Source: Limisphaerales bacterium (GTDB lineage: Bacteria > Verrucomicrobiota > Verrucomicrobiia > Limisphaerales > UBA1100). Taken from it: DNA of 64,000 nt. Both the position numbers and the translations under genes were made by a program. The notes below the pieces were generated by a model. It did no database searches, was not told the DNA's origin, and worked only from the letters and a program-made list of their open reading frames with translations. The stretch covers positions 1,876 to 65,875 of the forward strand of contig CBFHWX010000001.1 in assembly GCA_965659445.1 (NCBI GenBank). Reading direction: 5' to 3'. Each line of letters begins with the position of its first letter. Position 1 is the stretch's first letter. Shown one piece after another: positions 7,063 through 30,759 of the stretch.

Positions 7063-7392
7063 ATGATCAAAACGACCCAGTACATCGTAGTGCTTGTCAC
7101 TGCGCCCAAGCTCACCGTGGCTCGCAAGTTGGCTCGGGGAATTCTCAAGAACCGTCTCGCTGCGTGCGCCAATCTCATATCAGGTGTGGAATCGCATTAT
7201 TGGTGGGAAGGGAAAATGTGCCGCGATGTTGAGATGCTGATGGTGATGAAAACCTCGAGAGCCAAGCTCAAGGTGTTAGAGGAATTTGTGCTTGCTGAGC
7301 ATCCTTACGATACTCCAGAAATTGTGGTGCTTCCCATTGACTCGGGCAATCGTAGATATTTGAAATGGGTTGGGGAAAGTGTGAAGGACTGA
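7063..7392 (+). CDS. cutA: Divalent-cation tolerance protein CutA
   Basis: 109 aa. RLAACANLISGVESHYWWEGKM and EHPYDTPEIVVLPI are typical CutA1 segments. Confidence 0.85.
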   Translation: MIKTTQYIVVLVTAPKLTVARKLARGILKNRLAACANLISGVESHYWWEGKMCRDVEMLMVMKTSRAKLKVLEEFVLAEHPYDTPEIVVLPIDSGNRRYLKWVGESVKD

Positions 7393-7477
7393 TCATCTCA
7401 AAAGTGAATTGCTATTTATTCAATGTTGCTTTTCGGTTGATGAGCCGTCCTTGACATGTGTTATTGGCTTGCTAAAC

Positions 7478-10607: not shown

Positions 10608-10608
10608 C

Positions 10609-14546: not shown

Positions 14547-14640
14547 GATTCTCCTTTGCCCGCACCAAATCCCCATCGCGCGCAGCCGTGGGAACCTACT
14601 GGAAAAACACGAGAATGTCGAGTTTCAAGGAGGGTTTCAG

Positions 14641-14695: not shown

Positions 14696-16618
14696 ATGCG
14701 GCAAATCTCAATCATTGCAATCAATGCATTCATGGAACTGGTACGCCAGCCAGTTTTCCTGCTGCTGTTCACATTGTCGCCGATGCTTTGCGTGGGGCTG
14801 GCACTTTTCGATTATTTCGGTTTTGGAGGCACCTCAACCGGCCCTGTGAATTTCGACATTAAGATGGTGAAGGACGGTGCCCTGACGGTGACATTATTTT
14901 CTGGTTTGGCCGCAGCTGTGCTGTGCGCCACCTCGTCCATTTCCCGAGAAATAGAAACCGGCACGGCGTTGGCGGTGCTTTCCAAACCGGTCGGGCGCCT
15001 TCATTTTTTATTAGGCAAATATCTGGGCATCATAGGCGCACTCTCGGTGGGAACCTATCTCAACCTGATTAGCGTGCTGCTGGCCAGTCGCATGGCATCC
15101 GATGCGTACGGCAATTTTGACATTGTCGGCACCTTTACTTTTTTGATTTTTATATCATTGGCCTACCTTGCCGGCGCCCTTGTGAACTATTTTTTGCACA
15201 AGCCGTTTGTGCCGATTACAGTGGGATATCTAACAATAGCATTGACGGTAGGATTTTTTGTGATTTGCGCACAGGACAAAACAACAGCCTTTTACTGGGT
15301 GGATAGTGGAGCGGGGATTGATGCCTCTTTTTGGGATATTTGGAAATTTACTGATGGCGGAGGTATGAGGGGTAGTGAGGTGTTGCAGAAACTGGATATA
15401 GACAAAAATATGTGGGAGTACGTCGACTTTGGCATGATCCAGTTGACTGTGCTGGTTCTCTTCGCCCTTTGGGTTTTGGCCGCGTTGGCCGTGGCCTGTT
15501 CCACACGTCTTTCTTGGATGCCGACCATGATGATTTGCACCAGCGTATTCCTGATCGGAATGATGTCGGATTATTTGCTGGGAGAAGCGGCCGAAGGCGG
15601 AGGGTTGATCCGACAAGGTGAGTATGTGGAATACCGCCCGCTCGAGAACCAGCGAGGGATGCAAAAGGCCTTTTTTCTAGAGCCGAAGGGTATTCGCCGG
15701 TTGGAGTCCCTGCAATACCGTGTACGCGTGAATTTCTCAACCACTCTACACGAGGGCGAGGTGTTTGAGAATAACGTGATCACGTACGATGCGGGCACGA
15801 ACAAGGTGGCCACAATTGATTATGACTTTCTGCGCGAACTGTTGAATAACGAATTCAAGTTGCAATGGAACCGGCCTTTGAACAATGCGATGATTATAGT
15901 GGGGCGCGAGTTGATGCCAGCCGAGTTTCCTCAGGAAACATGGGAGACGTCAGTCTTTCTACAGTCTGATGAATTCCAAAATCGAAAAAAAGAAAAAGTG
16001 GCCACTTGGCAGGTCAAGGCTGACAAGGAGGGATGGGATTTCAGTGAGCGAGAGTCTGAATTGACGCGGAACCTGGTGGAAACCATTCGTCTGGAAAAAG
16101 AACAGGAACTGGTCAACCGAATGATGCTTGAGATGGATGCCAACTCGGGGAAGTTTGAATTGGGTGAGTTCGGGCTTGAAGACGGTGATGAAGACTTGTC
16201 GTTAGAGGTGCAGGCAGAGCGGAAGAAAAAGCAAAAGGAAAAATTCAAGCAGTTCCAGTACATTCGTACCCAATCCGAGATGGAAACTCTGCCTGGCCAA
16301 TTGTCTTTTTGGATTCGCCCGCAGAACGGCACTATTCACAAATGGGACAATGGAAAAGGGGTGTTAAGCGAGGTGACTCAAGGCTCAGCGGTTGCGAAAA
16401 TTCTTTACGTATTGCTGCCGAACTGGCAGCTTTTCTGGCTCTCCGATGCTGTCTCTCCTGAAGAAGTGGAATTGAAGGTGCTTCTTGGGGATATGAAGTA
16501 TCGGGAGGGCCACGTGCCTTGGAAATACGTGTTCACATCACTGTTTTATGTGTTCATGTACGTGTGTCTTGTGCTTTCGGCAGCATTATGGCTGTTTGAA
16601 AAACGTGAGCTAAACTGA
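14696..16618 (+). CDS. ABC-2-type permease-like membrane protein with a large charged insertion (640 aa)
   Basis: The N-terminal polytopic region carries the ABC-2/NosY-like signature SREIETGTALAVLSKPVGRLHFLLGKYLG. About 285 aa of soluble, K/E-rich sequence follows (EKEQELVNRMMLEMD, AERKKKQKEKFKQF) before LLPNWQLFWLSDAV and a final TM (VFTSLFYVFMYVCLVLSAALWLF). Confidence 0.6.
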   Translation: MRQISIIAINAFMELVRQPVFLLLFTLSPMLCVGLALFDYFGFGGTSTGPVNFDIKMVKDGALTVTLFSGLAAAVLCATSSISREIETGTALAVLSKPVGRLHFLLGKYLGIIGALSVGTYLNLISVLLASRMASDAYGNFDIVGTFTFLIFISLAYLAGALVNYFLHKPFVPITVGYLTIALTVGFFVICAQDKTTAFYWVDSGAGIDASFWDIWKFTDGGGMRGSEVLQKLDIDKNMWEYVDFGMIQLTVLVLFALWVLAALAVACSTRLSWMPTMMICTSVFLIGMMSDYLLGEAAEGGGLIRQGEYVEYRPLENQRGMQKAFFLEPKGIRRLESLQYRVRVNFSTTLHEGEVFENNVITYDAGTNKVATIDYDFLRELLNNEFKLQWNRPLNNAMIIVGRELMPAEFPQETWETSVFLQSDEFQNRKKEKVATWQVKADKEGWDFSERESELTRNLVETIRLEKEQELVNRMMLEMDANSGKFELGEFGLEDGDEDLSLEVQAERKKKQKEKFKQFQYIRTQSEMETLPGQLSFWIRPQNGTIHKWDNGKGVLSEVTQGSAVAKILYVLLPNWQLFWLSDAVSPEEVELKVLLGDMKYREGHVPWKYVFTSLFYVFMYVCLVLSAALWLFEKRELN

Positions 16619-16619
16619 A

Positions 16620-18623
16620 ATGGAAAAGCATGATGTCAAGGGCGGTTTCTGGAACCTGCTAATTAGTCTTGTGGCGTTGGGTGGTGGCGTGGTGCTGGTG
16701 ACCTCCACCAAAACCGGCACGGCATACGCATTGTTGTTCTTCGGTATAGTGGGCGTGTTGATTGCTGCCGTCAGTTGGGTGCATATGTTGCTCAGCAATC
16801 GCGAACAGCTTGAGCAGTTGGAATTGGAGGAGGTTCGTCGAGGTCGTGCCGGCGAGGCTCTGTTCTCCGAAGGCGACGTTTTGCCTGCAAGGCGTTCCCG
16901 GGAACAATTTGAAAAATGGGGTGTGCTGGGTGTGGCCCTAACCATTTTGGCGGTTCAGGTGGTTGGTGTTGGTTATCTCAGCTTTTTCAAACTGCTCGAT
17001 CTCTTTAATAAAATTGAGGCGGACAAGAATGCCATCTTCATGCACCCGCTTGCGCAGTACACGGCACTCATAGTTACGGCTCTGGTGGGATTGATCCTCT
17101 TTATTCGAGGTCAGTTTGCCTCGAACTATTCGCGCATTGAAAAGCAGCGACTGTTGCAGCCGGCCTCGGATTATGTGCTCTTCGGGGCTTATCTCAATTT
17201 TGCGATGGCCGCCATGGTGGCGGTTAGTTTCAAGGATCAACGAGTCGATGCCTATGTCGGCTGCGTGCTTGCGTTTTTGATCGGATTCATGGCTCTTGAA
17301 AATTTCCTGAGCATGATATTTGAGTTTTTCCGGCCGCGTGTGGCCGGTCGGCCCGCCCGGTTGCTCTACCAGAGCCGGCTTGTGGGACTAATTGCTAAGC
17401 CGGAGAACCTGTTTACGACCGCGGGCGATGTGTTGAATTACCAGTTCGGCTTCAAGGTTTCCGAGACGTGGGGTTACCGGTTTCTTCGGGAAAGGCTGGG
17501 GGTGTTGATTGGAATTCAGATCATTCTGTTATGGCTTTCCACCAGCATTGTGGTGATCCAGCCCTCTGAGGTGGGAATGAAAGTGAATGTCCTGGGTGGA
17601 GCCGCCAAGTCAGAACCCCTGAAGTCCGGTTTTCACCTTAAAATGCCATGGCCGTTTGCATCAGTGGATCGTTATTATCCAGGTCAGGTTCATAGTTTCA
17701 TCGTGGGGCTGCAGCCTTCCGAAGCTTTTGACAAGCTGGGCGCACCCAAGTTGTGGGCGGCTAAGGTTGGGAAGGACTATGATCCCCTCCGGGAATCCGG
17801 TTTTCTGTATTTCATGGCTGGCGGCAGTAAGACGGGTGCGGCTTCCCAGACTCCTAACATCCTGGTAGCGAGTGTTCCGGTGCATTATAAAATTCGGGAT
17901 GACAAGAAGATGCCGCTAGAGAAGGGGTGGCTGAGATTCGCCAACCCAGAAAAGTTACTGGAAAATATAGCCTACCGGGAAATCTCATCTTTTTTTCTGG
18001 GGAGTAACCTTGAAAAGCTGTTGAAAACGCAAGGGAGTGACGCGAATAAACAGGTGAAGCTCGCCATTCAGAATCGGGCCGATAAGAGGGAGTTGGGTGT
18101 GACCATTTTATTTGTAGGGTTGGGGGATATCCGCCCGCCGGCGGAATCTCCCAGCAATATAAAAGGAGAGTTTTCTGAAGAGGCGGGAGGCCCACAAGAA
18201 ACAGGAGGTGGGCCAGGGTTGGAACTCAGCCCCACGACCATGGTGCAAGCGGTGGAGACGCGTTTTGCCAACTTTGTTGAGTCCAAGGCAAATCTTGAAA
18301 GTGCCGAGGAGTTTAGAAAAGCGGAGGCGATTAAAAAGGCTGCCGGTGTGGAGCAGGAAAAGGGTCTGGCCAAGGTAGAAATAGATCTTGCCGAGGTTCG
18401 TGCTAAGGGGGAAACGAAACGCATGGAAAGTGAGACCGGTCCTTACCGTGCGGCGCCGGAGGTCTACCGACAATGGCGTTATCTTGAGTCCTTCCAGAAA
18501 GCCATAGCTAATGCGCGCAAGTTTGTAATTGCCGTTGGCAAGGGAGTTGATGTCCATGTGGATTTGGATCTTCAGGAATCTCTTCGAAGGGAGATGTATG
18601 AGGTTAAGGGGGGCAACAAATAA
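16620..18623 (+). CDS. Polytopic membrane domain fused to an HflK/HflC-like SPFH (band 7) domain (667 aa)
   Basis: The first 330 aa or so contain about 6 hydrophobic helices. Then comes an anchor helix (LGVLIGIQIILLWLSTSIVVI) and SPFH-like segments: QPSEVGMKVNVLGG, GFHLKMPWPFASV and VPVHYKIRD. The C-terminal YRAAPEVYRQWRYLESFQKAI parallels the HflK tail motif. Confidence 0.65.
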   Translation: MEKHDVKGGFWNLLISLVALGGGVVLVTSTKTGTAYALLFFGIVGVLIAAVSWVHMLLSNREQLEQLELEEVRRGRAGEALFSEGDVLPARRSREQFEKWGVLGVALTILAVQVVGVGYLSFFKLLDLFNKIEADKNAIFMHPLAQYTALIVTALVGLILFIRGQFASNYSRIEKQRLLQPASDYVLFGAYLNFAMAAMVAVSFKDQRVDAYVGCVLAFLIGFMALENFLSMIFEFFRPRVAGRPARLLYQSRLVGLIAKPENLFTTAGDVLNYQFGFKVSETWGYRFLRERLGVLIGIQIILLWLSTSIVVIQPSEVGMKVNVLGGAAKSEPLKSGFHLKMPWPFASVDRYYPGQVHSFIVGLQPSEAFDKLGAPKLWAAKVGKDYDPLRESGFLYFMAGGSKTGAASQTPNILVASVPVHYKIRDDKKMPLEKGWLRFANPEKLLENIAYREISSFFLGSNLEKLLKTQGSDANKQVKLAIQNRADKRELGVTILFVGLGDIRPPAESPSNIKGEFSEEAGGPQETGGGPGLELSPTTMVQAVETRFANFVESKANLESAEEFRKAEAIKKAAGVEQEKGLAKVEIDLAEVRAKGETKRMESETGPYRAAPEVYRQWRYLESFQKAIANARKFVIAVGKGVDVHVDLDLQESLRREMYEVKGGNK

Positions 18624-18632: not shown

Positions 18633-19613
18633 ATGAAAAAGACAATCAACATCATCATATTTGGGCTGTTAATTCTCATCTTCGGCTCCTACATGTTCAC
18701 CTTTCAGGTGAGGCAGGATCAAGTGGCCTTCTTATCGAAAAGCGGCAGCGCGGGCAAACCCATCGAGAAAACCGGGCTGCATTTCAAGTTGCCTTGGCCG
18801 TTCATGCAAAAATATATCTTCGATAAGCGTATTCGACTGGAAACCAATGATTATGAGGAGATGACCACCAAGAATGACACGGCCGTGGTGGTGCAGATAT
18901 ATTTCGGATGGAAAATTGATGAGGGTGGCGCCCAAAAGTTTTTTGAAGCCTACAAAGGTACTGATGATGAGGAGCAATTGAAAACCGCACGCAAACAAAT
19001 CAAGGATGCTGTTCAGGAAACCGGCAAGGAAGTAATCAAGGACTATGTAACCAGCGTTGGCTATTTCATTTCGAACGATGAAAACCCGGAAGATTCACAA
19101 ACTGAAGGAAGCGAGGACCGTCAGACTTTTAAAGAAACAGAAGATAAAATTCTGGAAAATGCCAACAAGCGTGTCACCAGTCAGGGAGTGAAAATTACTT
19201 TTGTGGGAATCCGTCGGGTGGGTGTGCCACAAAGAAACCTGGACGTGGTGTTGGATGCCATGGTCACCGAATGGATGAGTAAAGCGGAAACGGAAAAGGT
19301 GAAGGCCGATTCCATGGCGGCCACAATCAAGAGCAACGCGCTGAACGAACGAATTGCGGCGATCAATACGGCGAAGATCCAGGCGGCCAGTCAGGTAAGT
19401 GAGGCACAGGAGAAGGCCAAGAAACAATTTGAGTCATTTAAGAAAGATCCGGAGTTGGCGTCATTTCTGATGCAATTGGACGCGCTTGAAAAATCAGTCA
19501 AGGACCAGACTACGCTGATACTTGATGAAACGATGGGGCCTTTCCCAATTTTACGCGGTCTCAAACCCTATCTTAAATCCGGAGAAACCGGCTCCCCGAT
19601 TAAGCCTGAATAA
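18633..19613 (+). CDS. HflC-like SPFH-domain protein (326 aa)
   Basis: N-terminal anchor INIIIFGLLILIFGSYMF, then VRQDQVAFLSK, GLHFKLPWPFMQKYIFDKRI, GVKITFVGIRRVGVP, a coiled-coil region and KKDPELASFLMQLDALEKS. This matches the HflC layout as I remember it (GLHFKIPF ... KDPDFYAFIRSLRAYE). Confidence 0.7.
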   Translation: MKKTINIIIFGLLILIFGSYMFTFQVRQDQVAFLSKSGSAGKPIEKTGLHFKLPWPFMQKYIFDKRIRLETNDYEEMTTKNDTAVVVQIYFGWKIDEGGAQKFFEAYKGTDDEEQLKTARKQIKDAVQETGKEVIKDYVTSVGYFISNDENPEDSQTEGSEDRQTFKETEDKILENANKRVTSQGVKITFVGIRRVGVPQRNLDVVLDAMVTEWMSKAETEKVKADSMAATIKSNALNERIAAINTAKIQAASQVSEAQEKAKKQFESFKKDPELASFLMQLDALEKSVKDQTTLILDETMGPFPILRGLKPYLKSGETGSPIKPE

Positions 19614-20830
19614 TGCGCATGAGCGACCCCGAAGAAAAACAGTCGGAGATGGAGCCGGTAGATATCGGTAATGAGGCCAGTTCACAGGCCATGGATGCTG
19701 CTTTGCAGAGCAGCTTTGTGATTCTCAAGGTTGTTATCGCAGTGCTCGCCGTGTATCTGGTTTTTTCCAACACTTTTTCCGTCGTGGAGGGTAAGCAAGG
19801 TGCGATTATTTTACGTTTTGGTGAGTCTCGAACCAGTACAGAAGATGTGTGGAAACCCGGCATTCGTTTTGCCTGGCCCTTTCCGATTGAGGAAAGGGTT
19901 ATCATAGACGCGGTAAGTCCGGTAACTACGGCTTTTGCCTGGACCCAATATCCGAAAGTCGATGATGGCATGCCCGATGATGATCCCGGTAAATACCCTA
20001 ATATTGTAGCGCGGGACCCTCGTCAGGGATATCTGCTAACCAAGGATAACAAAGCCATTCATCTCAAAGCAGAGATGAGATATGAGGTCACTGATTTTGA
20101 TCGGTTTGTGTTCGGGTTTTATAAAAAAGATGAAAACAAGGATGAACCAACTGATGCTGAAAGGACTCTGGAACACATGTTGGAAAGTGCTCTTACGCAT
20201 GCGGCTTACGAACGCACACTGGAGGAGATTCTGAATCCCAATCGTATTCCCAAGGAGGCAAGTGACCGCGATACCTTTCAGAAGAAAGTTGAAAAACGCG
20301 TCGCAATCTTGATGGAGCAATATGACCTGGGAGTGAAGTTGAAAGACCGGGTCACCATCAGTTTTGGAAACAGCGAAGAAATGGAATCCATTCCCGTAGG
20401 TCGAGGTGTGGAAGACCCGGCCTCGCCGGAAGCCCAACCGGGAGCCCGCAAGAGCCGAAAGAAGTTCACAGAGCAAGCCAGTGATACGGTTAAAAGAATC
20501 AAGGACGCCGAGCGCGAGGCTCGAATGCGCTACCCATTACCAAGCAAAAGCGGGGAATTGGCCATCATTGCTAAACAGGCGGAGAATGAAAAGAAAGCCC
20601 TGCTCCAATCTCTGGAAGCGACTGCTAAACGTTTTGACAGTATTTATGAGAAATTTTCCGACCCCGCCGCCCGCCACCGGCACATGGAGGAACTGTATTA
20701 CCAAACCATTACGCGCATTGCCCAGGACACAGACGTGAAAATATATCTCGTTCCCAAAGGAGATGAGAACCAACCCACGCGTCTGCGATTACAAATCAAC
20801 CAACCGCCACCCAAGCGTAACAATAATTAA
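19613..20830 (+). CDS. HflK-like SPFH-domain protein (405 aa)
   Basis: Anchor helix VILKVVIAVLAVYLVF, then VVEGKQGAIILRFGE, GIRFAWPFPIEERVIIDAV, IHLKAEMRYEVTDFDRF and the C-terminal HMEELYYQTITRIAQDTDVKIYLVP (compare HflK RERLYIETMEKVL). The ATG shares one base with the upstream TAA. Confidence 0.65.
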   Translation: MRMSDPEEKQSEMEPVDIGNEASSQAMDAALQSSFVILKVVIAVLAVYLVFSNTFSVVEGKQGAIILRFGESRTSTEDVWKPGIRFAWPFPIEERVIIDAVSPVTTAFAWTQYPKVDDGMPDDDPGKYPNIVARDPRQGYLLTKDNKAIHLKAEMRYEVTDFDRFVFGFYKKDENKDEPTDAERTLEHMLESALTHAAYERTLEEILNPNRIPKEASDRDTFQKKVEKRVAILMEQYDLGVKLKDRVTISFGNSEEMESIPVGRGVEDPASPEAQPGARKSRKKFTEQASDTVKRIKDAEREARMRYPLPSKSGELAIIAKQAENEKKALLQSLEATAKRFDSIYEKFSDPAARHRHMEELYYQTITRIAQDTDVKIYLVPKGDENQPTRLRLQINQPPPKRNNN

Positions 20831-20839: not shown

Positions 20840-22813
20840 ATGCCTGCTGAGGAAAACGAAAATAACGAGGTCGAATTGAACCAGGCCGCAACGACGGTGA
20901 AGTTCATGTTCGCCGGTATTTTGTTTGTAATCAACGGCTTCCTTGCGGATGTGTTTTTAGGTAAGGAATCCAATGTAGGCGATTTCAGCGCAATGATTGG
21001 CGCGTTAATACTCGGAGTCCGTGTGTTTCGCACCACGATTAAGGATCTTCAGCAAGGCCTTCTTACCACAAACGAGCTTGTGGCTATTGCTGTGTTGGCA
21101 ACATTCAGTTATGGCCAGTATCACGCGGCCGGATTGGTGGCGTTCTTCATGTTGCTGGCCGAAATGATTGAATCACGCACGGCCTCGGGTGCGCAGGAGG
21201 CCATTCGCCGCCTGATGAAGATGACGCCGACCAAGGCGCACCGCATCACTTCGGACGGGGAAGAGGAGGTTTCGGCCAATGACCTCGCAGTAGGTGACCG
21301 TATTCGCGTGCGGCCCGGAGACAACATTCCTGCGGATGGTGAGATTCTTACGGGTACCGGCTCAATTAATCAGGCTAATATCACAGGGGAATCGTTACCT
21401 GTTGAGAAGCGGCCCGGAGACATGGTCTTTCAGGGTACCATCAATAATGATGGGGTACTGGAAGTTAAGATTACCAAGGTGGGAGTGGAGACAGAGTTTG
21501 GCCGCGTGCGCGAATTGATTATTCAAGCGGCTCAATCCAAGACACGGTTTGAAAAAATCGTCGACCAGTACATGGGATTTTATACGCCGCTGGTCCTGGT
21601 AATTGGAGCGCTCGTGTGGGCGTTTACACAGGACTTGGAGCGGGTGATTTCAGTCTTCATTGTTTCAAGCCCGGTGGCGTTTATTTTGGCGACCCCCACG
21701 GCGATGGTGGCCGCAGTGGCCACAGCCTCACGACTGGGCATTCTCATTAAACAGGTTAGTGATATTGAATTGGCGGCGCGGATTAATGCGTTTGTTTTTG
21801 ATAAAACCGGAACCATAACAACTGGTACGTTGAAGGTGAGCCAGTTACGCCCGGAGGGTGATGTGAAGCCGGCAGAGCTGCTTTTGGCCACAGCTACTGC
21901 AGAGCAATACAGCAATCACCCCACCGCCAAGGCTATTATGACCTTGGCGAACGAAGCTGGGTTGCCACTTTCTGAGCCGGAGGATTTCAATGAGACCGCC
22001 GGTAAAGGTGTGCGGGCAAAGGTGGACGGCGCAGAGGTGTTGGTGGGCCGCGAAATGTGGCTTGAGGAAAACAAAATCAGTGGTGACTTCAAGCAATCAG
22101 TGGATTTGGATGAGGCGGAAGGTTATAGTTTGGTTTATGTGGCCCGCGATGGAAAGTTTATTGGCTGGATAGGAATGACTGATGAGATTCGAGAGGAGGC
22201 CGCAGAGTCCCTTGAGGAACTTCGTTTGGAAGGCGTGCGGCGGCTGATGATTGTTTCCGGCGATCGCACACCTGTTTCTGAGCGAGTGGCCGCTGAAGTG
22301 GGATGTGAAGAGGTGAAGGCGGATTGTTTCCCCGGCGACAAGGTGGATCACGTGCAAGCCATGCGTAAGAAAGGTTACAAGGTTGCCTTTGTGGGTGATG
22401 GTGTGAACGATGCTCCCGCTTTAAAGGCCGGTGATATCGGCATTGCGATGGGCGCAGCCGGTAGTGATGTTGCGGTGGATTCTGCGACCATTGCGCTGAT
22501 GAACAATGATCTCAGGCGCCTGCCTTTCCTGATGCACCTTTCGCGTATGACCCGTTCAGTGATTAACCAGAATTTTATTTTTGGGGTGCTCTTTGTGATT
22601 GTTGGTCTGGTCATGGCCGCCTTTAAATGGATTAACCCGGTTAGCGCAGCCGTCCTCAATGTAATGGGATCGTTGATTGTTGTGTTTAATAGCGCGCGAT
22701 TGGTGCGTGAAGGTGAAGAGTTCGAAGTTTTCGAGGAAGGCGAAGAGGAACAAGAAATATCCGGTGCAGCCGAGATTACGGAAACATCCAGAATGGCCAC
22801 CGAGGCCGTATGA
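20840..22813 (+). CDS. P-type ATPase, P1B-like core, no N-terminal metal-binding domain and no CPC motif
   Basis: ITGESLPVEK (TGE), FVFDKTGTITTG (phosphorylated Asp), SNHPTAKAI (HP dipeptide typical of P1B) and VGDGVNDAPALKAGDIGIAMG. The helix that normally carries CPC reads VSSPVAFILATPTAM. Confidence 0.85.
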   Translation: MPAEENENNEVELNQAATTVKFMFAGILFVINGFLADVFLGKESNVGDFSAMIGALILGVRVFRTTIKDLQQGLLTTNELVAIAVLATFSYGQYHAAGLVAFFMLLAEMIESRTASGAQEAIRRLMKMTPTKAHRITSDGEEEVSANDLAVGDRIRVRPGDNIPADGEILTGTGSINQANITGESLPVEKRPGDMVFQGTINNDGVLEVKITKVGVETEFGRVRELIIQAAQSKTRFEKIVDQYMGFYTPLVLVIGALVWAFTQDLERVISVFIVSSPVAFILATPTAMVAAVATASRLGILIKQVSDIELAARINAFVFDKTGTITTGTLKVSQLRPEGDVKPAELLLATATAEQYSNHPTAKAIMTLANEAGLPLSEPEDFNETAGKGVRAKVDGAEVLVGREMWLEENKISGDFKQSVDLDEAEGYSLVYVARDGKFIGWIGMTDEIREEAAESLEELRLEGVRRLMIVSGDRTPVSERVAAEVGCEEVKADCFPGDKVDHVQAMRKKGYKVAFVGDGVNDAPALKAGDIGIAMGAAGSDVAVDSATIALMNNDLRRLPFLMHLSRMTRSVINQNFIFGVLFVIVGLVMAAFKWINPVSAAVLNVMGSLIVVFNSARLVREGEEFEVFEEGEEEQEISGAAEITETSRMATEAV

Positions 22814-22829: not shown

Positions 22830-24053
22830 ATGACCGAGAATGATTTAGAGGAAACCATCACAGCCCCCGCTGAAACGGATGAGATCACGGAGGTGGTGCA
22901 GGTGCGCGGGCTGGTAAAAGTGTTCGAGGATTTCTGGGGTCGCCCAAAGGCTAAGGCGGTGAATGATGTGGACTTTGAAGTGCGACAGGGTGAAGTGTTT
23001 GGTTTGCTGGGTCCGAATGGCTCCGGTAAATCTACAACCATCAAAATATTACTCGGCCTGTTGAATCCAACGCGCGGGTTTATTCGCATTTTTGACCAAT
23101 CCCCCCGTGATGTGAAAACCAAGGAGCGTATCGGATATCTTCCTGAGGAATCCTACCTATACAAATATCTGAACTCCGAAGAAACTCTTGATTTTTTTGG
23201 TGGATTATTTGCGCTGGATCCCAAAGAGAAAGCCCGCCGAGAAGAGCAACTGCTCGAGATGGTGGGATTGAAAGCGGTGCAATTGCGAACGGTGGGTGAG
23301 TTTTCCAAAGGTATGCAACGACGCATTGGTTTGGCGCAGGCGCTGATCAATGATCCGGATTTGGTGATCCTTGATGAGCCGACCAGTGGTTTGGATCCGG
23401 TGGGCTGTCGGGAAATTAAGGACCTTATCCTCAACCTCAAGGCACGCGGTAAAACAGTGATTCTCTCAAGTCATCTGCTGGCTGATGTGGAAGATGTTTG
23501 CGATCGGGCCGTTATTTATTACGGCGGAAAGATCCAACAATATGGTACCCTTGATGAATTGCTCACCGAACGCGATTCTATTCGGTTCACCATGCCGGCC
23601 CTCTCAGAAGAGGCGCAGCATGAAGTGTTGAGCGTGATCAATAAACATGTCAAAAGTGAAGACGTGCACGTGGATAATCCCACACAGAATCTTGAGAGCT
23701 TTTTCCTCAATGTTGTGGAGGATGCCATCACCAAGGATGAGGAAACTTCCGGGTCCACTTCCGGCCATGAAGTTGCCGAGTTTTTGCGAAGCGATGCGCC
23801 GGTGCAATCGCAGGCTGAGAAGATGTTGGATCGACTGGCTGACAAGGAAGCCTCCAAACCGAAACCCAAGATTGAGAAGGAAGTGCCGGAGTTCGAACAA
23901 CCCAAGGTGGACGAGAAGAAGCTTGAGTCCCTCTCGGAAGCTGAGAAGTCCGCCTCGCCAAAAGTGAAAGCGCCAACGAACAAGAGTACTCAAGAGCAAA
24001 AGAAAATGGATGAGGCCGATGATAAACTATCCGACCTGTTGGGCGGGGATTAG
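22830..24053 (+). CDS. ABC transporter ATP-binding protein with an acidic/lysine-rich C-terminal tail
   Basis: Walker A GPNGSGKSTT, Q-loop, signature FSKGMQRRIGLAQAL, Walker B LVILDEPTSGLD and H-loop SSHLL. The last 110 aa or so are low-complexity (KPKPKIEKEVPEFEQPKVDEKK). I chose the ATG at 22830 (MTENDLEE) because the track start at 22677 overlaps the ATPase gene. Confidence 0.85.
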   Translation: MTENDLEETITAPAETDEITEVVQVRGLVKVFEDFWGRPKAKAVNDVDFEVRQGEVFGLLGPNGSGKSTTIKILLGLLNPTRGFIRIFDQSPRDVKTKERIGYLPEESYLYKYLNSEETLDFFGGLFALDPKEKARREEQLLEMVGLKAVQLRTVGEFSKGMQRRIGLAQALINDPDLVILDEPTSGLDPVGCREIKDLILNLKARGKTVILSSHLLADVEDVCDRAVIYYGGKIQQYGTLDELLTERDSIRFTMPALSEEAQHEVLSVINKHVKSEDVHVDNPTQNLESFFLNVVEDAITKDEETSGSTSGHEVAEFLRSDAPVQSQAEKMLDRLADKEASKPKPKIEKEVPEFEQPKVDEKKLESLSEAEKSASPKVKAPTNKSTQEQKKMDEADDKLSDLLGGD

Positions 24054-24064: not shown

Positions 24065-26200
24065 ATGAAACAATCTAAGCTTCTACTTGTTGTCATATTG
24101 GCGATTTTGTCTCTCGTAGCGGTTGTTGTCTTGTACCAAATTTACCCTTCAAGATGGATAATATATTCATATGTGGGGATTCTTATAGCAGGCATTTTCT
24201 TCTCAGTGGTCAGTTCGACTTACCAGAGGCAGTCTGAAACACTCATTTTACATACCGCAGGGCTAATTGGGCTGGTGGCCATTGTAACTGTTGTTAGTTA
24301 TTTCGGGGGTGGGCTGTGGTTGGGGGCCCTGGGATTGCTCGCCCTGATCGCGTTGATTGTCTACTGTATTTTAGATTCCCGCACGCGCACCATCTCGCGT
24401 CTCACTTGGAAAGCCGCCTTTCGGTTTCGTTTCTTCTGGGTTATGGCAATTCTGCTGCTTTTTTCCGTGGTGGGTTTGCCTATGATGATCAAGGGCGATG
24501 GCACGGCTGAGGGGTTAACTCAAATCCTTATTACTTACACGCTCAGCACGATATTTTTCATCCTTGGCACAGGCACTCTTTGGCTTTCAGCAGGCACCAT
24601 GGCGCGTGATATCGAAGATTCACAAATGCAAATGATAGCCACCAAGCCAATTGCCCGGTGGCAGATCTGGATGGGCAAATGGATTGGCATCATGGCCTTA
24701 AACGTGACATTGCTGGTGATGGTTGGTGTGGCGGTTTTCGGAGTGGTGGAATACCGGGCCTATCGACTGACTAATGAGGAATTTAACCGCATAAAGGATC
24801 AATCTGATAAAGAGGTTTTTAAAACAGCGCTCAAAGCGGGTATTGATGTTTTCCAGCGCGATGAGGCAACTCTTGGATTCGTTAAGGCTTCGAAGGATCA
24901 ACCGTTGCTGGAACAATCCAGAAGTACATTCTTCGGGACTCGAGAGGGTTTCATGATCAAGGAGTTTATTGATAAAAATAAAGTCCAACCTTTGCTGAAG
25001 CCAATGGAGGAATTACGGCGTGAAGTAGCGGGACTGGAAGAGAAGAGATTACGGAAGCAAGTGCTGATCGGTCGTGCAAAAATGACATTGAAAGAAGTGA
25101 AATTTGCCCGGACACCGGAAACAGTGGTTCCGCTGAAGGAAAGCTATGAATCGCAGATTGAGGAGGAGGTACGGTTCCAAATCGAGCAGGAAATGGCCGA
25201 TCGCCTGGAGGTGCAGCGGCGCATACAATCTGAGGGGGGTTCGTTCGAAGTGCCAAAGGAACTTTCGGAGGCTGAAATGAATGTCTTTCAGGCACGTGCA
25301 GAATTGATGTTGAGGACTAGAATGCAGGTGTTGGAACCAGGTCGTGGGTTTCAATTCCAGTTTACCAAGCCATTAGGGTTTGATTTGCCGGAAGATCAAC
25401 GTCTCATATTACAATTCCAATTTACAGACGCTCGCCAGCCTACCAGTGATGAGGAATATGGAGTCATGTACATGTATGGACCCGAAAGTCGTCCAGATGT
25501 GGAATTAGTTCCTCGTCAATTGACTGCCCGAAGGACTCATCAAGTCTACCTGCATGGGCACACGGTGGATACGAACAATGTAATACAGAGTATATTCGGC
25601 GACGACCAAACGTTTTGTGTCACATTAGTCAATGCCACTCATCGCTCGGGCCAGTATCCACGGCCAGCTTTATTGAAGCTTCCTTTCATTAACGAGATGA
25701 CCGGGGAAATTGATCCCTCCAAAGTGCAACTAATGTATCGCGAGTCTGGATTTGCCATCAATTTTATACGGGCTCTTGGTATTCTTTTAGCGTGGCTTGG
25801 GATTTTTGCGGCTTTGGGATTGTTCGCAGCTGGTTTCATGTCTTTCCCCATGGCGGCATTCTCTTGTCTGGCAGTGCTGGGTATCTCCTTATTTAGCCCG
25901 GTGATGAAGGAAGTTTTGGATGATGGCACCATTATGAATACTTATACCCTTGGTGAGCGAGATAGATCTGTTGTGGATTGGTATGCGATACCAGCGTTTA
26001 CTCTGCTGGTTACACTTATAGATCCGGTGAAGGATTACTCACCGATTAGTAGTTTGGCAGAAGGCGAGAGTGTCACGTGGGGTGAATTAGCCAAGGCCTA
26101 TTCCTTCATATGGGGTGTTTCCGGCTGGCTGTTGGGGCTTTTCGGTGCGATTATATTCTCAAGAAGACAGCTGGCCATCAACGGAGCACAAGCCCCATGA
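24065..26200 (+). CDS. ABC-2-type permease-like membrane protein with extra N-terminal helices and a large soluble insertion (711 aa)
   Basis: GGAGGG lies upstream of the ATG. About 4 extra N-terminal helices precede the ABC-2-like signature ARDIEDSQMQMIATKPIARWQIWMGKWIG. A soluble insertion of about 330 aa follows (coiled-coil-like EELRREVAGLEEKRLRKQ), then C-terminal helices. Confidence 0.55.
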   Translation: MKQSKLLLVVILAILSLVAVVVLYQIYPSRWIIYSYVGILIAGIFFSVVSSTYQRQSETLILHTAGLIGLVAIVTVVSYFGGGLWLGALGLLALIALIVYCILDSRTRTISRLTWKAAFRFRFFWVMAILLLFSVVGLPMMIKGDGTAEGLTQILITYTLSTIFFILGTGTLWLSAGTMARDIEDSQMQMIATKPIARWQIWMGKWIGIMALNVTLLVMVGVAVFGVVEYRAYRLTNEEFNRIKDQSDKEVFKTALKAGIDVFQRDEATLGFVKASKDQPLLEQSRSTFFGTREGFMIKEFIDKNKVQPLLKPMEELRREVAGLEEKRLRKQVLIGRAKMTLKEVKFARTPETVVPLKESYESQIEEEVRFQIEQEMADRLEVQRRIQSEGGSFEVPKELSEAEMNVFQARAELMLRTRMQVLEPGRGFQFQFTKPLGFDLPEDQRLILQFQFTDARQPTSDEEYGVMYMYGPESRPDVELVPRQLTARRTHQVYLHGHTVDTNNVIQSIFGDDQTFCVTLVNATHRSGQYPRPALLKLPFINEMTGEIDPSKVQLMYRESGFAINFIRALGILLAWLGIFAALGLFAAGFMSFPMAAFSCLAVLGISLFSPVMKEVLDDGTIMNTYTLGERDRSVVDWYAIPAFTLLVTLIDPVKDYSPISSLAEGESVTWGELAKAYSFIWGVSGWLLGLFGAIIFSRRQLAINGAQAP

Positions 26201-27885
26201 GCAAGGAACGAGCTACTATTTTCAACAACCTGCCCAAGCCCGCCCTGATTGGTGTCATGCTGGCCTCCTTGGTTGGGGTTTTTCTGATGCAGGGCAAGCT
26301 CAACGAGGAACGCGGTAAACTAAGCCCCACCCATCTTGAGCCGCTGCAGGACGCTCCTCCCATGCTGGCACTCGTCACTCAGTCCATAGCAGGCTTCCGT
26401 GGCATCATCACCTCCTATTTATGGCTGCGTTCCAATGCAATGCAGCAAAAGAAAAATTATCCCGAGCAAATGCAGTTGGCCGAGTGGATTACTCAGCTTC
26501 AGCCTCAAGTGCCCAACGGCTGGGCGAACCGGTCATGGAATATGGCCTACAATATTTCACGTAATTATGAAGATCCGGAAACCCGGTGGAAATACATACA
26601 TGACGCGGTGAAATTGTTGCGTGATCAGGGCATTAAGTACAATCCACAGGAACCCTTGGTATACGATGAACTGTGCCGCCTTTTTCAACATAAGATAGGT
26701 CATAACATGGATAGCCATCACCGCTACTACAAATTCAGATGGATGCAAGCCATGGAAGGAGTGCTGTGGGACAGCCCTACGGCTGGCCATCTGGCAGGAG
26801 GGGTGCCGGATTTTGAATCGCTGATCAAGCCGGATGAAAACAACAAGAAACTTGTGGAACGGGCTAAACGCCTGCGTCAGGAGTATGGATTGGATCCACG
26901 TGAAATGCAGGCTGTTCACAAGAAGTATGGTTTGGCGCGCGATCATACGGGAGAGGTGATCCGGGACAAGGATGGGAAGACGATCAATTGCCTGGACTGG
27001 CGGATGGCGGAAACTCATTCCCTATATTGGGCAAATCTAGGTCTCAAGCGTTGCAGTCTCACCCCCGGACGCGAAAAACGCCTCCACGTGCTCGAGAAGA
27101 AAGTTTATGTGTCCATGATGTACGGCTTTCAGCGTGGTCGATTAAACGTTCCGTCAGCAACGATGAAAAACATGGGGGTACGCATCAATTACCACTTTGG
27201 AAAGGATATGAACGCGTTCAGTGAATATAGCAGTGGATTTATTTCAGCTCCCAATTTGGATAGTGGGGGAGCAGTGCATAAAGCATATATGGACATGATT
27301 AAACATGCTCAAGATAACCGGACAATACACTACACCGGTGGTACATCAGAGATGGGGCACATACACTTTCTTCGCCGACTGATGGAGTGGCTTTACTTTT
27401 ATAATCGAGAGGAAGAAGCCATGGAGTGGCTGAAGGTGGCCATTAAATTATATCCAACAAAAATGTCTTACTTCCCCGGGTATAACAGTGAGACAGATAC
27501 GTATAGGCTGGATGATATTGTTAACGATAAAATGAAGGATGATGTGCAACGCGGGAGTGATTCTAAAACGCAGGCGTTATTGTGGGGAATTTTTACCAAA
27601 CATTATTTCTATCTGGCCAGCGGGGATGAGGAAAGGGCGGACAATTATTATGACATGGCCAAACAAATTCATGACCATTATACTGACAAATTCAAGAATT
27701 CCCCGGAACGAATGGGTATTGCACCTTTTGAACAATATAGGATAACACGGCTACGCGCATTTCTTATGGAGGAGGATTCTGTGGTGACAGGTGCCCTTCG
27801 TACCCAACTAGGGTTGGGTAAGGAAGAAATGCCCGAGGTGCCTAAAATACAGGGTCCCCAACCACAGCCCGGGCCCGAACAATAA
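26197..27885 (+). CDS. Membrane-anchored protein of unknown family (562 aa), Trp/Tyr-rich helical ectodomain
   Basis: ATGA overlap with the upstream stop. Single N-terminal TM PALIGVMLASLVGVFLM. Conserved-looking blocks FRGIITSYLWLRSN, WANRSWNMAYNISRNYEDPETRWKYIHDAVKLLRDQG and HSLYWANLGLK. Pro/Gln-rich tail. Confidence 0.5.
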   Translation: MSKERATIFNNLPKPALIGVMLASLVGVFLMQGKLNEERGKLSPTHLEPLQDAPPMLALVTQSIAGFRGIITSYLWLRSNAMQQKKNYPEQMQLAEWITQLQPQVPNGWANRSWNMAYNISRNYEDPETRWKYIHDAVKLLRDQGIKYNPQEPLVYDELCRLFQHKIGHNMDSHHRYYKFRWMQAMEGVLWDSPTAGHLAGGVPDFESLIKPDENNKKLVERAKRLRQEYGLDPREMQAVHKKYGLARDHTGEVIRDKDGKTINCLDWRMAETHSLYWANLGLKRCSLTPGREKRLHVLEKKVYVSMMYGFQRGRLNVPSATMKNMGVRINYHFGKDMNAFSEYSSGFISAPNLDSGGAVHKAYMDMIKHAQDNRTIHYTGGTSEMGHIHFLRRLMEWLYFYNREEEAMEWLKVAIKLYPTKMSYFPGYNSETDTYRLDDIVNDKMKDDVQRGSDSKTQALLWGIFTKHYFYLASGDEERADNYYDMAKQIHDHYTDKFKNSPERMGIAPFEQYRITRLRAFLMEEDSVVTGALRTQLGLGKEEMPEVPKIQGPQPQPGPEQ

Positions 27886-27909: not shown

Positions 27910-29571
27910 GTGACACACCGTACCGAAACCGTGGCCTTTAGAATATTACTTCCAATTTTTGTTTTCTGCCTTGGGATAATATTGGCGGGATGCAAAAAAG
28001 AATCCTCTCAAGCTGGAAAAAACGGCGAATCTTCGAGCGATACGACACCATCTGAAAAACAAGTACTTCGCCTTGGAAATGGGGCAGAGCCGGAGGGGCT
28101 CGACCCTCAAATTGTTACCGGTGTGCCCGAACACTTCATTCTAGCAGCGTTGTTGGAAGGTTTGCTTAGTGAACATCCCAAGACTCTTGCGCCAGAGCCC
28201 GGCGTGGCGGAGCAATGGCAGATTTCTGAAGACGGTCGGGAGTACACATTCAAATTGCGTTCCAATGCTAAATGGACCAATGGCGACGCGGTTAAAGCAA
28301 GCGATTTTGCCTACTCCTATCAAAGAATGCTAACCCCGGCGCTAGGAGCAAAATACGCCTACATGCTGCATGTACTAAAAAACGCAAAAGCTTTTAACGC
28401 GGGTACACTGGAGGATTTTTCTGAGGTGGGAGTGAAGGCTGTGGACGATCGCACACTGGTGCTCATTCTGGAGGAACCCACGCCTTATTTTCTCCAGTTA
28501 ATTAACCACTATTCGTGGTATCCAGTGCACCCACCTACCATCAAGAAGTTTGGCGGTATGACCCAGCGCGATTCCAAATGGACCCAGCCTGAAAATTTTG
28601 TGGGTAATGGTAGTTTTCGACTTAAGGAATGGAAGCTGAATGAGCACGTGCTTGTGGAGAAAAGCGCTACCTATTGGGACGCCGCAAAGGTGAAACTGGA
28701 AAAGATTTATTTTTTGCCCATTACCAGCGCAGAAACGGAAGAAAAAATGTTTCGTGACAACCAGTTGCACGCCACCCAAACCATCCCGTCAACCCGCATC
28801 GAGCACTACCAAAAAAAGGATTCTAATGTCCTGCGAGTGGATCCGTACCTCGGCACTTATTTTTATCGGGTGAACGTGAATCACAAAGCGCTAAAGGACA
28901 AGCGTGTGCGACATGCCCTGGCAATGTCCATCAATCGTCATGAGATTACTCGTTTTGTGCTCAAGGCTGGCCAGATTCCCGCCTATCATATTACTCCGCC
29001 AAATACCGCAGGCTACACTGCACGAGCCAAGTTTGAATTTAATCCCGAGCGAGCTCGAGAGTTACTGTCAGAAGCAGGCTTTCCAGATGGTCGCGGCTTT
29101 CCCAAGTTTGATATTTATTACAACACCAGCGAAGACCACAAAAAGGTTGCTGAGGCCATTCAGCAAATGTGGAAAAAGACGCTCAATATTGACGTGGGTC
29201 TGTTTAATCAGGAATGGAAAGTGTACCTCGATACAGTCAACAAGGTAAATTACGATGTGGCACGTGCCGGCTGGATTGGCGACTACAACGACCCCAACAC
29301 ATTTCTGGACATGTGGCTCACTGGCGGTGGCAACAACCAGACAGGCTGGTCTAATGCTCGCTACGACCAGCTCATCAAGGAGGCCGCAAAGGCCGGTGAC
29401 CCAAAAGAGCGCTTTGAGAAATTCCAGGAAGCCGAGGCTATCCTAATCGATGAAATGCCCGTTATTCCCATTTATTTTTATGTGAGTCTCTCACTGGTGA
29501 AACCAAACGTGCGTGGTTGGTATCCGAATATTCTCGATCATCACCCCTACAAGTATATCCACCTCGAATAG
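27910..29571 (+). CDS. Peptide/nickel ABC transporter substrate-binding lipoprotein (SBP family 5, OppA/DppA/GsiB-like)
   Basis: Lipobox ILAGC. Family-5 segments EGLLSEHPKTLAPEPGVAEQWQISEDGREYTFKLRSNAKWTNGDAVKASDFAYSYQR and WIGDYNDPNTFLDMW. GTG start at 27910. Confidence 0.85.
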   Translation: MTHRTETVAFRILLPIFVFCLGIILAGCKKESSQAGKNGESSSDTTPSEKQVLRLGNGAEPEGLDPQIVTGVPEHFILAALLEGLLSEHPKTLAPEPGVAEQWQISEDGREYTFKLRSNAKWTNGDAVKASDFAYSYQRMLTPALGAKYAYMLHVLKNAKAFNAGTLEDFSEVGVKAVDDRTLVLILEEPTPYFLQLINHYSWYPVHPPTIKKFGGMTQRDSKWTQPENFVGNGSFRLKEWKLNEHVLVEKSATYWDAAKVKLEKIYFLPITSAETEEKMFRDNQLHATQTIPSTRIEHYQKKDSNVLRVDPYLGTYFYRVNVNHKALKDKRVRHALAMSINRHEITRFVLKAGQIPAYHITPPNTAGYTARAKFEFNPERARELLSEAGFPDGRGFPKFDIYYNTSEDHKKVAEAIQQMWKKTLNIDVGLFNQEWKVYLDTVNKVNYDVARAGWIGDYNDPNTFLDMWLTGGGNNQTGWSNARYDQLIKEAAKAGDPKERFEKFQEAEAILIDEMPVIPIYFYVSLSLVKPNVRGWYPNILDHHPYKYIHLE

Positions 29572-29580
29572 CCGCGTGCT

Positions 29581-30759
29581 ATGGTTCGGTACATTTTTCA
29601 AAGGCTGATTGTCTTTATCCCGGTGCTCTGGATGATTGCGACCATCACTTTTTTCATGGTGCGCCTGGCTCCGGGTGATCCGTTCAGTGACGAAAAGGAA
29701 ATGCCTGAGGAAGTGCGGGACCGCATCAAGGCCTACTATGGGCTGGACTTGCCGTTGAGACAACAATACCTCATCTATCTAGGGGTGAAGTCAAAGGAGA
29801 CGGACAAGCATCGAGTGAAACTTGGTGCGGATGAAAACGCTAGGGAATATCGGCATGAAGATGCTAATGCAACCCTGCGGGTCACATCCAACGGTGGATC
29901 TATTGCTGTGGAGAAATTGAACGGGCAAGGTGAGTGGCATGTCCGTCTTGTTGATAACAACGCCACCACAGCCACCCGTGAAGTGGATGTATATCGCCGA
30001 GGTGAGCGATCGGGTCTATTGCAGGGTAACCTCGGGCCTTCCTTAAAGCATAAGGGGAAAAGTGTGAGTGATATCATCCGCGAGGCGTTTCCCAAAAGTC
30101 TTGAGCTGGGTCTCTATGCCATGACTATCGCATTGCTGCTTGGCATAGCCGCCGGTTCCATCGCGGCTCTTAAACAGAATTCTATTCTGGATTATGCCCC
30201 AATGTCGTTGGCGATGATGGGTATCTGCCTACCCACTTTTGTCATGGGCCCGTTGCTGGTACTTGTGTTTGGGCTTTGGCTGGAATGGTTTCCTGTGGCT
30301 GGGTGGTCGGCCTGGGGTGGGGAGGGATTTTTCCCTGAGGGATGGCCAAACGATCGCGTGCTGCCAGCCTGCACTCTCGGATTTTTTTACGCCGCTATGG
30401 TTGCCCGTCTTACCCGCGGTGGCATGCTCGAGACGCTCAACCAGGACTTTATTAAGACTGCCCGTGCCAAGGGCCTCTCCGAGACAAGTGTGGTGGTGAA
30501 GCACGCTCTGCGCGGCGGGATTCTTCCCACGGTGAGCTTTCTGGGTCCTGCTTTTGCCGGAATAATCAGTGGTTCATTTGTCATCGAAACCATCTTCAAC
30601 ATTCCTGGTTTGGGGCGGCATTTCATCGAGGCGGCTACTAACCGCGACTACACACTTGTACTCGGAACTGTGATCTTTTATGCCACGCTCATTTTGGCGC
30701 TCAACCTCATTGTCGATGTCCTCCAAGTTTGGCTCAATCCTCGGATGAGAATTCAATGA
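29581..30759 (+). CDS. Peptide ABC transporter permease (OppB/DppB/GsiC-like) with an insertion of about 85 aa in the first periplasmic loop
   Basis: MVRYIFQRLIVFIPVLWMIATITFFMVRLAPGDPF and GLDLPLRQQY. An atypical insert precedes LLQGNLGPSL. EAA-loop region FIKTARAKGLSE. Confidence 0.85.
   Translation: MVRYIFQRLIVFIPVLWMIATITFFMVRLAPGDPFSDEKEMPEEVRDRIKAYYGLDLPLRQQYLIYLGVKSKETDKHRVKLGADENAREYRHEDANATLRVTSNGGSIAVEKLNGQGEWHVRLVDNNATTATREVDVYRRGERSGLLQGNLGPSLKHKGKSVSDIIREAFPKSLELGLYAMTIALLLGIAAGSIAALKQNSILDYAPMSLAMMGICLPTFVMGPLLVLVFGLWLEWFPVAGWSAWGGEGFFPEGWPNDRVLPACTLGFFYAAMVARLTRGGMLETLNQDFIKTARAKGLSETSVVVKHALRGGILPTVSFLGPAFAGIISGSFVIETIFNIPGLGRHFIEAATNRDYTLVLGTVIFYATLILALNLIVDVLQVWLNPRMRIQ

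Follow-up and report, generated by a model that had tools for sequence, protein, structure and literature searches.

We analysed a stretch of 64,000 nucleotides (nt) from a Limisphaerales bacterium (assembly GCA_965659445.1, contig CBFHWX010000001.1, positions 1,876 to 65,875; hereafter the window) and investigated a P-type ATPase gene that lies at positions 20840..22813 on the plus strand. The open reading frame encodes a protein of 657 amino acids (aa), which was assigned to the P1B fold with NCBIfam, HMMER and Foldseek and which carries Ser-Pro-Val (SPV) in the fourth transmembrane (TM) helix, M4, together with Asn in M6 (the SPV/N variant). The Pfam domains E1-E2_ATPase (PF00122, E = 6.6e-50) and HAD (PF00702, E = 1.6e-29) were both detected, and by these matches the protein is a member of the P-type ATPase superfamily. 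The heavy-metal P1B model TIGR01525 scored 546 bits (cutoff, 346), the broad subfamily model TIGR01512 (“cadmium family”) was passed with 458 bits (cutoff, 313.5), and the Cu model TIGR01511 was just missed (394.6 bits; cutoff, 397). The ZntA equivalog models gave 319 to 367 bits against cutoffs of 1005 to 1240, and the CopA equivalog models remained well under cutoff. A phmmer search of all PDB sequences returned LpCopA, AfCopA, sCoaT and ZntA as top matches (E = 1e-94 to 1e-79). The AlphaFold2 model showed eight TM helices with M4 unwound or broken at residues 276 to 278, and P1B structures (CopA, sCoaT, ZntA and HMA4) ranked first in Foldseek, with TM-scores of 0.62 to 0.79. As judged from sequence and model, the eight-helix topology (MA, MB and M1 to M6), the HP dipeptide, the sequence and the fold all place the protein in the P1B subfamily.

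The catalytic core was intact, as an earlier note on this DNA had proposed, and every motif quoted there was present. Conservation was assessed in an alignment (A1) of relatives with SPV, CPV or CPC in M4. The A-domain dephosphorylation loop TGES (residues 182 to 185; 21383..21394, plus strand, as are all features of the gene), the phosphorylation site DKTGT (residues 321 to 325; 21800..21814), which extends to DKTGTIT at residues 321 to 327, and the HP dipeptide that is the P1B signature of the N-domain (residues 360 and 361; 21917..21922) were invariant. In the P-domain hinge GDGVNDAPAL (residues 519 to 528; 22394..22423), residues 519 and 521 to 528 were invariant and D520 nearly so (at least 90%). 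S473-G-D and K501 were likewise invariant or nearly invariant. The only cysteines of the protein, C489 and C496, lie in the cytosolic P-domain segment EVGCEEVKADC (residues 486 to 496; 22295..22327), and residues 1 to 70 contain neither His nor Cys, which agrees with the earlier note on the location of the cysteines and on the lack of an N-terminal CxxC or His-rich domain. Since C489 is invariant and C496 nearly invariant among SPV, CPV and CPC relatives, the segment does not mark out the SPV clade.

The TM metal site was then compared position by position with that of characterised pumps. The M4 motif SSPVAFILATP (residues 276 to 286; 21665..21697) aligned column for column with ACPCALGLATP of LpCopA, which together with the break of M4 in the model identifies it as the CPC-equivalent helix, as previously suggested. 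A misassigned M4 helix was ruled out, as the HMMER alignments to LpCopA and AfCopA agreed with the AlphaFold2 model. In the HMMER alignment, C382 and C384 of LpCopA correspond to S277 and V279, Y688 and N689 to F585 and V586, and M717 and S721 to N607 and S611; E205 and D337 correspond to E111 and D242. We take the first six of these LpCopA residues to be metal ligands and E205 and D337 to form the entry site, as in the LpCopA structures. M5 (INQNFIFGVLFVIVG, residues 575 to 589; 22562..22606) thus presents F585 and V586 where CopA has Y688/N689 and ZntA has K693, and a ZntA-type representative (P0243) aligned its M5 Lys opposite V586. M6 (AAVLNVMGSLIVVFNSARL, residues 603 to 621; 22646..22702) has N607 at the ligand position and keeps S611. 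The M6 alignment to sCoaT (7QBZ) is ambiguous by one residue, as HMMER inserts a gap and an ungapped count sets H657 on N607; the distance from H657 of HEGST to the conserved Asn of NALRL is 10 residues, as is that from N607 to N617. These alignments make residue 607 the M6 ligand position shared across pump types, where Cu pumps have Met, Zn pumps Asp, Co/P1B-4 pumps His and the window ATPase Asn.

No Cys, His, Met, Asp or Glu was found at the equivalent ligand positions of M4, M5 and M6, and no Cys in any TM helix. The idea that the M5 and M6 ligands of Zn and Cu pumps are missing therefore holds for the Lys, Asp and Met positions, now V586 and N607, but not for CopA S721, whose Ser is retained as S611. 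Relative to the closest relatives the replacements were C277 to S, C279 to V and H607 to N, so that only one of the three ligands gave way to a hydrophobic residue, contrary to the description in the earlier note. The codons are AGC (S277), CCG (P278), GTG (V279) and AAT (N607). S277, P278 and V279 were invariant in 53 SPV-clade clusters, in answer to the suggestion that conservation of SPV be surveyed among homologs, and N607 was present in 52 of the 53, from many independent metagenomes; position 607 was His in 104 of 104 CPC relatives. Positions 277, 279 and 607 were the only TM-site positions that were conserved within clades but differed between SPV and CPC. No acidic residue was gained in the TM site at the clade-specific positions, and no compensating new TM-domain ligand was found among the 41 to 46 clade-specific substitutions. 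E111 and D242 were still invariant, and so was E108 within the SPV clade. Chance or sequencing error as the origin of S/V/N was excluded by its recurrence in SPV-clade clusters from independent assemblies.

The M4 signatures quoted for P1B subgroups are CPC, CPH, SPC/APC, PCP, SCA and CSC (PMC13460109, PMC3922081). SPV fits none of the signatures given for P1B-1 to P1B-7 in these two reviews, in line with the earlier note, to which no such class was known; S277-P278-V279 lacks the Cys of the CPx/xPC motif that defines P1B pumps (C382-P-C384 in LpCopA). Of the features of P1B-1 (Cu+/Ag+; CPC, YN in M5, M..SS in M6) only S611 is kept, the other residues being S/V, F585/V586 and N607, and V586 and N607 stand where P1B-2 pumps (Zn2+/Cd2+/Pb2+; CPC) have the M5 Lys and the M6 Asp. 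P1B-4 pumps (Co2+/Zn2+/Cd2+) carry SPC or APC in M4 and HEGxT in M6 (PMC3922081), and with SPV and NVMGS the window ATPase agrees with them only in Ser-Pro and the last Ser/Thr. P1B-5, P1B-6 and P1B-7 have PCP, SCA and CSC in M4, none of which is SPV, and P1B-6-like pumps additionally have N-x18-H-N-x-(S/T) (PMC13460109). This literal motif was absent from the window ATPase, and N-x18-HN occurred in 1 of 389 family sequences, where it was spurious. Membership in P1A (KdpB) was not supported either, with 144.7 bits versus 527.9 for TIGR01497 and 138 versus 1323 for NF010609.

To place the variant among its relatives we compared the 120 nearest representatives of 90%-identity clusters, which came from Verrucomicrobiota wherever a name was available. 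The SPV group (n = 54) was at least 72% identical to the query, with L-N-V-x-G-S in M6 and an N-terminus without a His-rich tail. The CPV group (n = 24) was about 65% identical and also tail-less, with L-H-V in M6. The CPC group (n = 39) was 62 to 66% identical, with L-H-N or L-H-V in M6 and a mostly His-rich or CxC-containing N-terminus. The best match in a library of 50%-identity representatives was a CPC protein (63% identity), and the window ATPase and a CPC representative share one 50%-identity cluster. In a neighbour-joining tree with 100 bootstrap replicates, SPV and CPV were each monophyletic (100% each), and 97% of replicates united these two with three tail-less CPC lineages. CPV joined the CPC proteins P0061 and P0057 (99%), and SPV plus CPV formed a clade in 1% of replicates, so that SPV as one further step from CPV was not supported and the Cys-to-Val change probably arose twice, independently in SPV and CPV. 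CPC with His607 (CPC/H) is ancestral, since the outgroups are CPC/H. By this tree SPV/N is a recent derived state of an apparently marine clade of Verrucomicrobiales, nested inside the CPC/His family (97 to 100% bootstrap), and the window ATPase is an ortholog of the CPC-type pump of Verrucomicrobiota and Lentisphaerota. The notion of SPV as a class of its own thus stands insofar as no published signature fits, but not as a deep lineage.

A survey of motif states in 261 family members revealed independent departures from CPC/H, namely CPI or CPV combined with Gln in a large clade of Lentisphaerota, and CPG/Q, CPV/N, CPV/H, CPC/N and SPV/N in Verrucomicrobiota. As read from these states, parallel loss of the second Cys and of the His occurred in several related lineages; within this ortholog family, SPV alone has neither of the two Cys. 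A small number of further M4 variants without Cys (GPS, APT, APA and FPD) occurred among the best 150 50%-identity representatives, so that P1B-like proteins of this kind, though rare, are not confined to SPV. Among these representatives, P0126 has YPD in M4 and HLFDP in M6 and P0168 has FPD in M4, both being thus carboxylate-bearing; P0136 has GPS with HN..D, and P0221 has APT. The motifs of these four suggest that the P1B scaffold has undergone other changes of substrate. Source names held no biome information. In each of two metagenome-assembled genomes (MAGs) the whole locus occurred twice, as diverged copies with matching flanking genes: GCA_964616045.1 (L019 and L022; one CPV, one SPV) and PBFV01 (L012 and L016; both SPV). 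A mixed bin or a co-assembly is a likelier cause here than true duplication.

Selection on the pump was estimated by comparing the window with locus L021, whose pump ortholog is 93% identical. The pump had the lowest ratio of nonsynonymous to synonymous divergence (dN/dS) of nine genes (0.054; the others, 0.089 to 0.191), and M3-M4 showed no amino-acid change at all (dN = 0 at dS 0.88). Between pairs of SPV loci the pump was 80% identical, compared to 76% for the ABC ATPase of the same operon and 34 to 56% for the remaining operon genes; in two comparisons between CPC loci, pump and ABC ATPase were 74% versus 71% and 69% versus 64% identical. The pump was the most conserved operon gene at every locus compared. 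By these measures, selection on the SPV pump is as strong as on its CPC relatives. A pseudogene or relaxed selection was excluded by the dN/dS of 0.054, the intact frame and the lack of rate acceleration relative to the operon neighbours.

Two further features were compared between the lineages. A His-rich N-terminus was present in 78 of 104 CPC sequences with H607 versus 1 of 157 in other states (same 261 family members). The position of His-rich patches varied in the CPC lineage: they were found at the pump N-terminus in L004 and L023, at the pump C-terminus in L024 (GPGHDHGEPGHAHAH; 10001-11968 of that locus), at the N-terminus of the SPFH3 protein in L004 (MNDHSHPHDEHEHPH; 8768-9868) and inside the SPFH1 protein in L026 (HGHSDGHGDSHEKAH; 5957-7951). 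It looks as if a metal-binding tail may sit on any subunit of one complex. No His/Cys-rich patch was found in the five proteins inspected per operon at SPV and CPV loci (eight loci, three of them SPV or CPV), and the window SPFH3 lacks the His-rich N-terminus of its L004 ortholog. Because these metal features were lost together, the comparison suggests that the CPC-type module handles a metal bound by His and Cys and that the SPV lineage has abandoned this function. The second feature concerns the linkers between TM site and headpiece (M2-A, residues 112 to 128; A-M3, 219 to 240; M4-P, 288 to 300), which held 15 of the 46 fixed SPV-specific substitutions versus 4.0 expected (hypergeometric p ~1e-6). 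A CPV-versus-CPC control gave 4 of 56 versus 4.8 expected. This clustering hints at a rewired coupling of the TM site to the headpiece.

The pump is gene 5 of a tightly packed operon of eight genes on the plus strand, with intergenic distances of -4 to +16 nt and +24 nt to the next gene, which encodes a substrate-binding protein. The operon opens with permA (14696..16618), an ABC-2-type membrane protein recognised by PF12679 and synteny. It is followed by SPFH1 (16620..18623; Pfam, NCBIfam and synteny), in which a multi-TM N-terminal domain precedes a Band_7/HflK-like domain, by the HflC-like SPFH2 (18633..19613; PF01145, with TIGR01932 at 91 bits, below cutoff) and by the HflK-like SPFH3 (19613..20830; Pfam and NCBIfam), which ends 9 nt 5' of the pump start. 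Downstream of the pump lie an ABC ATPase (22830..24053; PF00005), the large ABC-2-like membrane protein permB (24065..26200; weak PF12679 and synteny) and, as last gene of the module, a TM-anchored helical protein (26197..27885) whose orthologs align across Verrucomicrobiota and Lentisphaera. This last protein had no Pfam or NCBIfam match, Pfam matches at E up to 5 being noise. The mechanically called ABC ATPase frame starts at a TTG at 22677 and would overlap the pump gene by 137 nt; the real start is likely the ATG at 22830, 16 nt after the pump stop, because orthologs start 15 to 18 nt after the pump gene. A scan of the operon for promoters and terminators gave counts at chance level.

Gene order was identical in all SPV loci, in the CPV loci L019 and L020, in the CPC loci L004 and L023 to L026 and in the CPG/Q locus L028, and the complete genome of cultured Lentisphaera profundi (L027, CP117811) has the module in this order too. 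In L. profundi and in L. araneosa HTCC2155, the pump of this operon is the CPV/Q variant. These results cover 25 loci with informative flanks (L001 to L017 and L019 to L028), partial at contig ends; L024 lacks the downstream ABC part, and in L014 and L023 the module runs off the contig on one side. Since operon order is shared, the family pumps are orthologs at one locus rather than separate paralogs. We defined a Planctomycetota-Verrucomicrobiota-Chlamydiota (PVC) “SPFH-linked” P1B ortholog group, which is unpublished, by a place directly behind three Band_7 genes and the gene of an ABC-2 membrane protein, in most cases with an ABC ATPase next, by at least 45% identity and by the C-terminal motif FNSARLVRxGE. 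The window ATPase shows all of these features. The searchable literature yielded nothing relevant on SPFH/P-type ATPase operons, SPV, CPV or CPI motifs, FUPA families or PVC gene clusters. The constant association of SPFH proteins, ABC-2 proteins and pump points to an undescribed membrane complex, and a tightly packed operon conserved across two phyla strengthens the earlier note's idea of partner proteins from the same operon. An anti-phage defence module was also considered and rejected, as PADLOC gave generic ABC-ATPase matches only.

PermA contains a Cys pair, ACSTRLxxxPTxxIC (C-x12-C; residues 268 to 281, 15497-15538), that was found in 10 of 10 Verrucomicrobial loci examined, whatever the M4 motif of the pump; Lentisphaera lacks the pair. 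A disulfide or a metal site is conceivable, though the pair does not represent a compensatory gain, because it occurs equally beside CPC pumps. Upstream of the operon and divergent from it, a protein of 836 aa with FHA, Ser/Thr-kinase and LRR parts is encoded at 12066-14576 (minus strand). It occupies the same position in nearly all Verrucomicrobiales loci (59 to 81% identity), which suggests a regulatory link. On the other side, an Opp/Dpp-type peptide ABC importer (SBP_bac_5 and two BPD_transp_1 permeases) occupies 27910-30759 and beyond; it follows the module in most Verrucomicrobiales loci and is inverted in L026.

We favour, with a probability of roughly 60%, the reading that the window ATPase is a catalytically competent P1B-fold enzyme in an SPFH/ABC-2 context that is no longer a soft-metal pump. 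In the sequence and the model, the fold, the catalytic motifs, the M4 unwinding and the operon are all kept, and the enzyme would still run an ATP-driven E1/E2 phosphorylation cycle. Since the three metal-binding residues of the membrane are replaced, it probably does not pump zinc, cadmium or copper, and a thiophilic metal (Zn, Cd, Co or Cu) would neither gate it nor be transported. A substrate other than a soft metal is consistent with all of our findings. The hydroxyls of S277 and S611, the amide of N607 and the carbonyls of unwound M4 could form an uncharged all-oxygen site for a small hard cation. If any ion is moved, monovalent Na+ or H+ would be the most plausible, because the site has no carboxylate and divalents would bind poorly; the cation would be pumped outward by a pump working inside the SPFH/ABC-2 membrane assembly. 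The invariant entry-path acids E108, E111 and D242 fit continued cation traffic. Most of our confidence attaches to the general claim that the ATPase works but does not pump soft metals, and the specific ion is a weak conjecture. A more far-reaching version appears possible but doubtful to us: transition-metal transport would be wholly abandoned, and the enzyme would be the ATP-driven partner of a PVC-specific machine (a three-protein SPFH cage plus an ABC-2 exporter), pumping Na+/H+ or a lipid-like substrate or acting as a conformational motor. If this were true, the series from CPC through CPx/Q to SPV/N would represent repeated adaptive change of function in one orthologous pump.

Several points weigh against our reading. 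Replacing the CPC cysteines abolishes activity in characterised P1B pumps, so that an active cycle would need a changed coupling, which is only hinted at by the linker substitutions, and the p-value for these is optimistic since the windows were set after the substitution list was known. We know of no precedent for a carboxylate-free site among P-type cation sites. The Na+/H+ proposal comes from chemistry and from an apparent marine provenance taken from MAG names only. Moreover, constraint within the core was weakest in M5-M6 (dN/dS 0.16, window versus L021), an invariant single site says little about a specific ligand role in a clade as young as SPV (72 to 100% identity), and the confidence of the AlphaFold2 model was moderate (pLDDT 73.8, pTM 0.56).

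A rival reading is that of a non-transporting “pseudo-pump” that hydrolyses ATP and cycles but moves nothing through M4-M6, serving as a regulator or structural subunit of the SPFH/ABC-2 assembly, with the apolar S/V/N site mimicking one that is always empty or always occupied. The protein has lost all ligand chemistry and is otherwise very strongly constrained, operon membership is constant over two phyla regardless of the M4 motif, the fixed changes sit in the linkers that couple TM site and headpiece, and Lentisphaerota variants have also lost E108 in M2. However, S277, N607 and S611 are polar and conserved, with no drift among aliphatics, and the entry-path acids remain invariant in the SPV clade. 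To our knowledge, no non-transporting P-type ATPase is maintained in bacteria. We consider such a role rather unlikely.

An enzyme that still exports a divalent transition metal (e.g., Mn2+, Fe2+ or Zn2+), through a low-affinity site of O and N donors or with ligands from a partner such as the permA Cys pair, is favoured by its orthology to CPC/His pumps of 62 to 66% identity, and annotation pipelines name it a Cd2+/Zn2+-exporting ATPase. E111 and D242, at the CopA entry-site positions, are kept along with E108 and M245, and the permA pair is conserved in all Verrucomicrobial loci examined, but just as much beside CPC pumps. The bare M4/M5/M6 ligand positions and the simultaneous loss of all His-rich patches of the operon speak against this possibility, as does the presence of at least one M4 Cys in every P1B subgroup signature of the two reviews (PMC3922081, PMC13460109), and it seems to us distinctly unlikely. 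An artefact or a decaying gene, whether through a misassigned helix, a sequencing error or pseudogenisation, is suggested only by the general expectation that a P1B pump without CPC is inactive. It is highly improbable in view of the unambiguous M4 alignment and its agreement with the model, of the same S/V/N state in 53 clusters from independent assemblies, and of the purifying selection on an intact frame that evolves no faster than its neighbours. A functional ATPase that has left soft-metal transport remains our preferred reading, and the pipeline label is probably wrong for the SPV clade.

P1B classes and their substrates are predicted from a Cys-containing M4 motif and a few M5 and M6 ligands, of which the window pump has none. 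Here, close orthologs with the full ligand set sit beside a naturally selected ligand-less pump, and the series CPC/H, CPV/H, CPI/Q and SPV/N offers a means of asking which functions remain to the P1B scaffold once the thiolate site is gone, and is informative on how the coupling of ion site and phosphorylation can be rewired. The putative, undescribed SPFH/ABC-2/pump complex is open to genetic testing, cultured Lentisphaera included.

Among known systems, P3A H+-ATPases and P4 flippases (M4 “PV/IxxP” and “PISL”) have an aliphatic residue right after the M4 proline and a substrate that is not a transition metal. The likeness of SPV to them is one of analogy. They belong to other P-type classes with ten TM helices and key residues of their own, such as the M6 Asp of H+ pumps, that the window ATPase lacks. 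KdpB of KdpFABC is likewise a small P1-class P-type ATPase dependent on membrane partners from the same operon, but it is distant in sequence, gave weaker Foldseek matches and has other partners. The M. tuberculosis pumps CtpC, CtpG and CtpV with their PacL scaffolds (“effluxosomes”) are P1B pumps co-encoded with membrane scaffolds. These scaffolds, however, are small DUF1490 proteins and not SPFH proteins, and the pumps export Zn or Cd and keep at least one Cys, CtpG having a non-canonical APC in M4 (PMC13460109). The N-x18-H-N-x-(S/T) hallmark of the P1B-6-like CtpC does not occur in the window ATPase. P1B-4 pumps (sCoaT 7QBZ, CzcP and CtpD) share a Ser-Pro opening of the M4 motif, the lack of a ferredoxin-like metal-binding domain and the same M6 ligand position, and sCoaT gave the longest alignment among solved structures; they differ in the Cys after Pro, which is Val here, and in the His-Glu of HEGxT, which is Asn-Val. 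CopA of P1B-1 (LpCopA 3RFU/4BBJ and AfCopA) was the best match in sequence and fold, with E205, D337 and S721 kept, whereas C382, C384, Y688, N689 and M717 of LpCopA are replaced by S, V, F, V and N. The closest systems are the uncharacterised CPC/His orthologs of Verrucomicrobiota (e.g., P0085 and P0083, annotated as “Cd2+/Zn2+-exporting” or “cation-translocating”). They differ by C277, C279, H607, often N608 and usually a His-rich or CxC N-terminal tail, but at 62 to 66% identity they share with the window ATPase the locus and operon, the eight TM helices, all catalytic residues and most TM residues.

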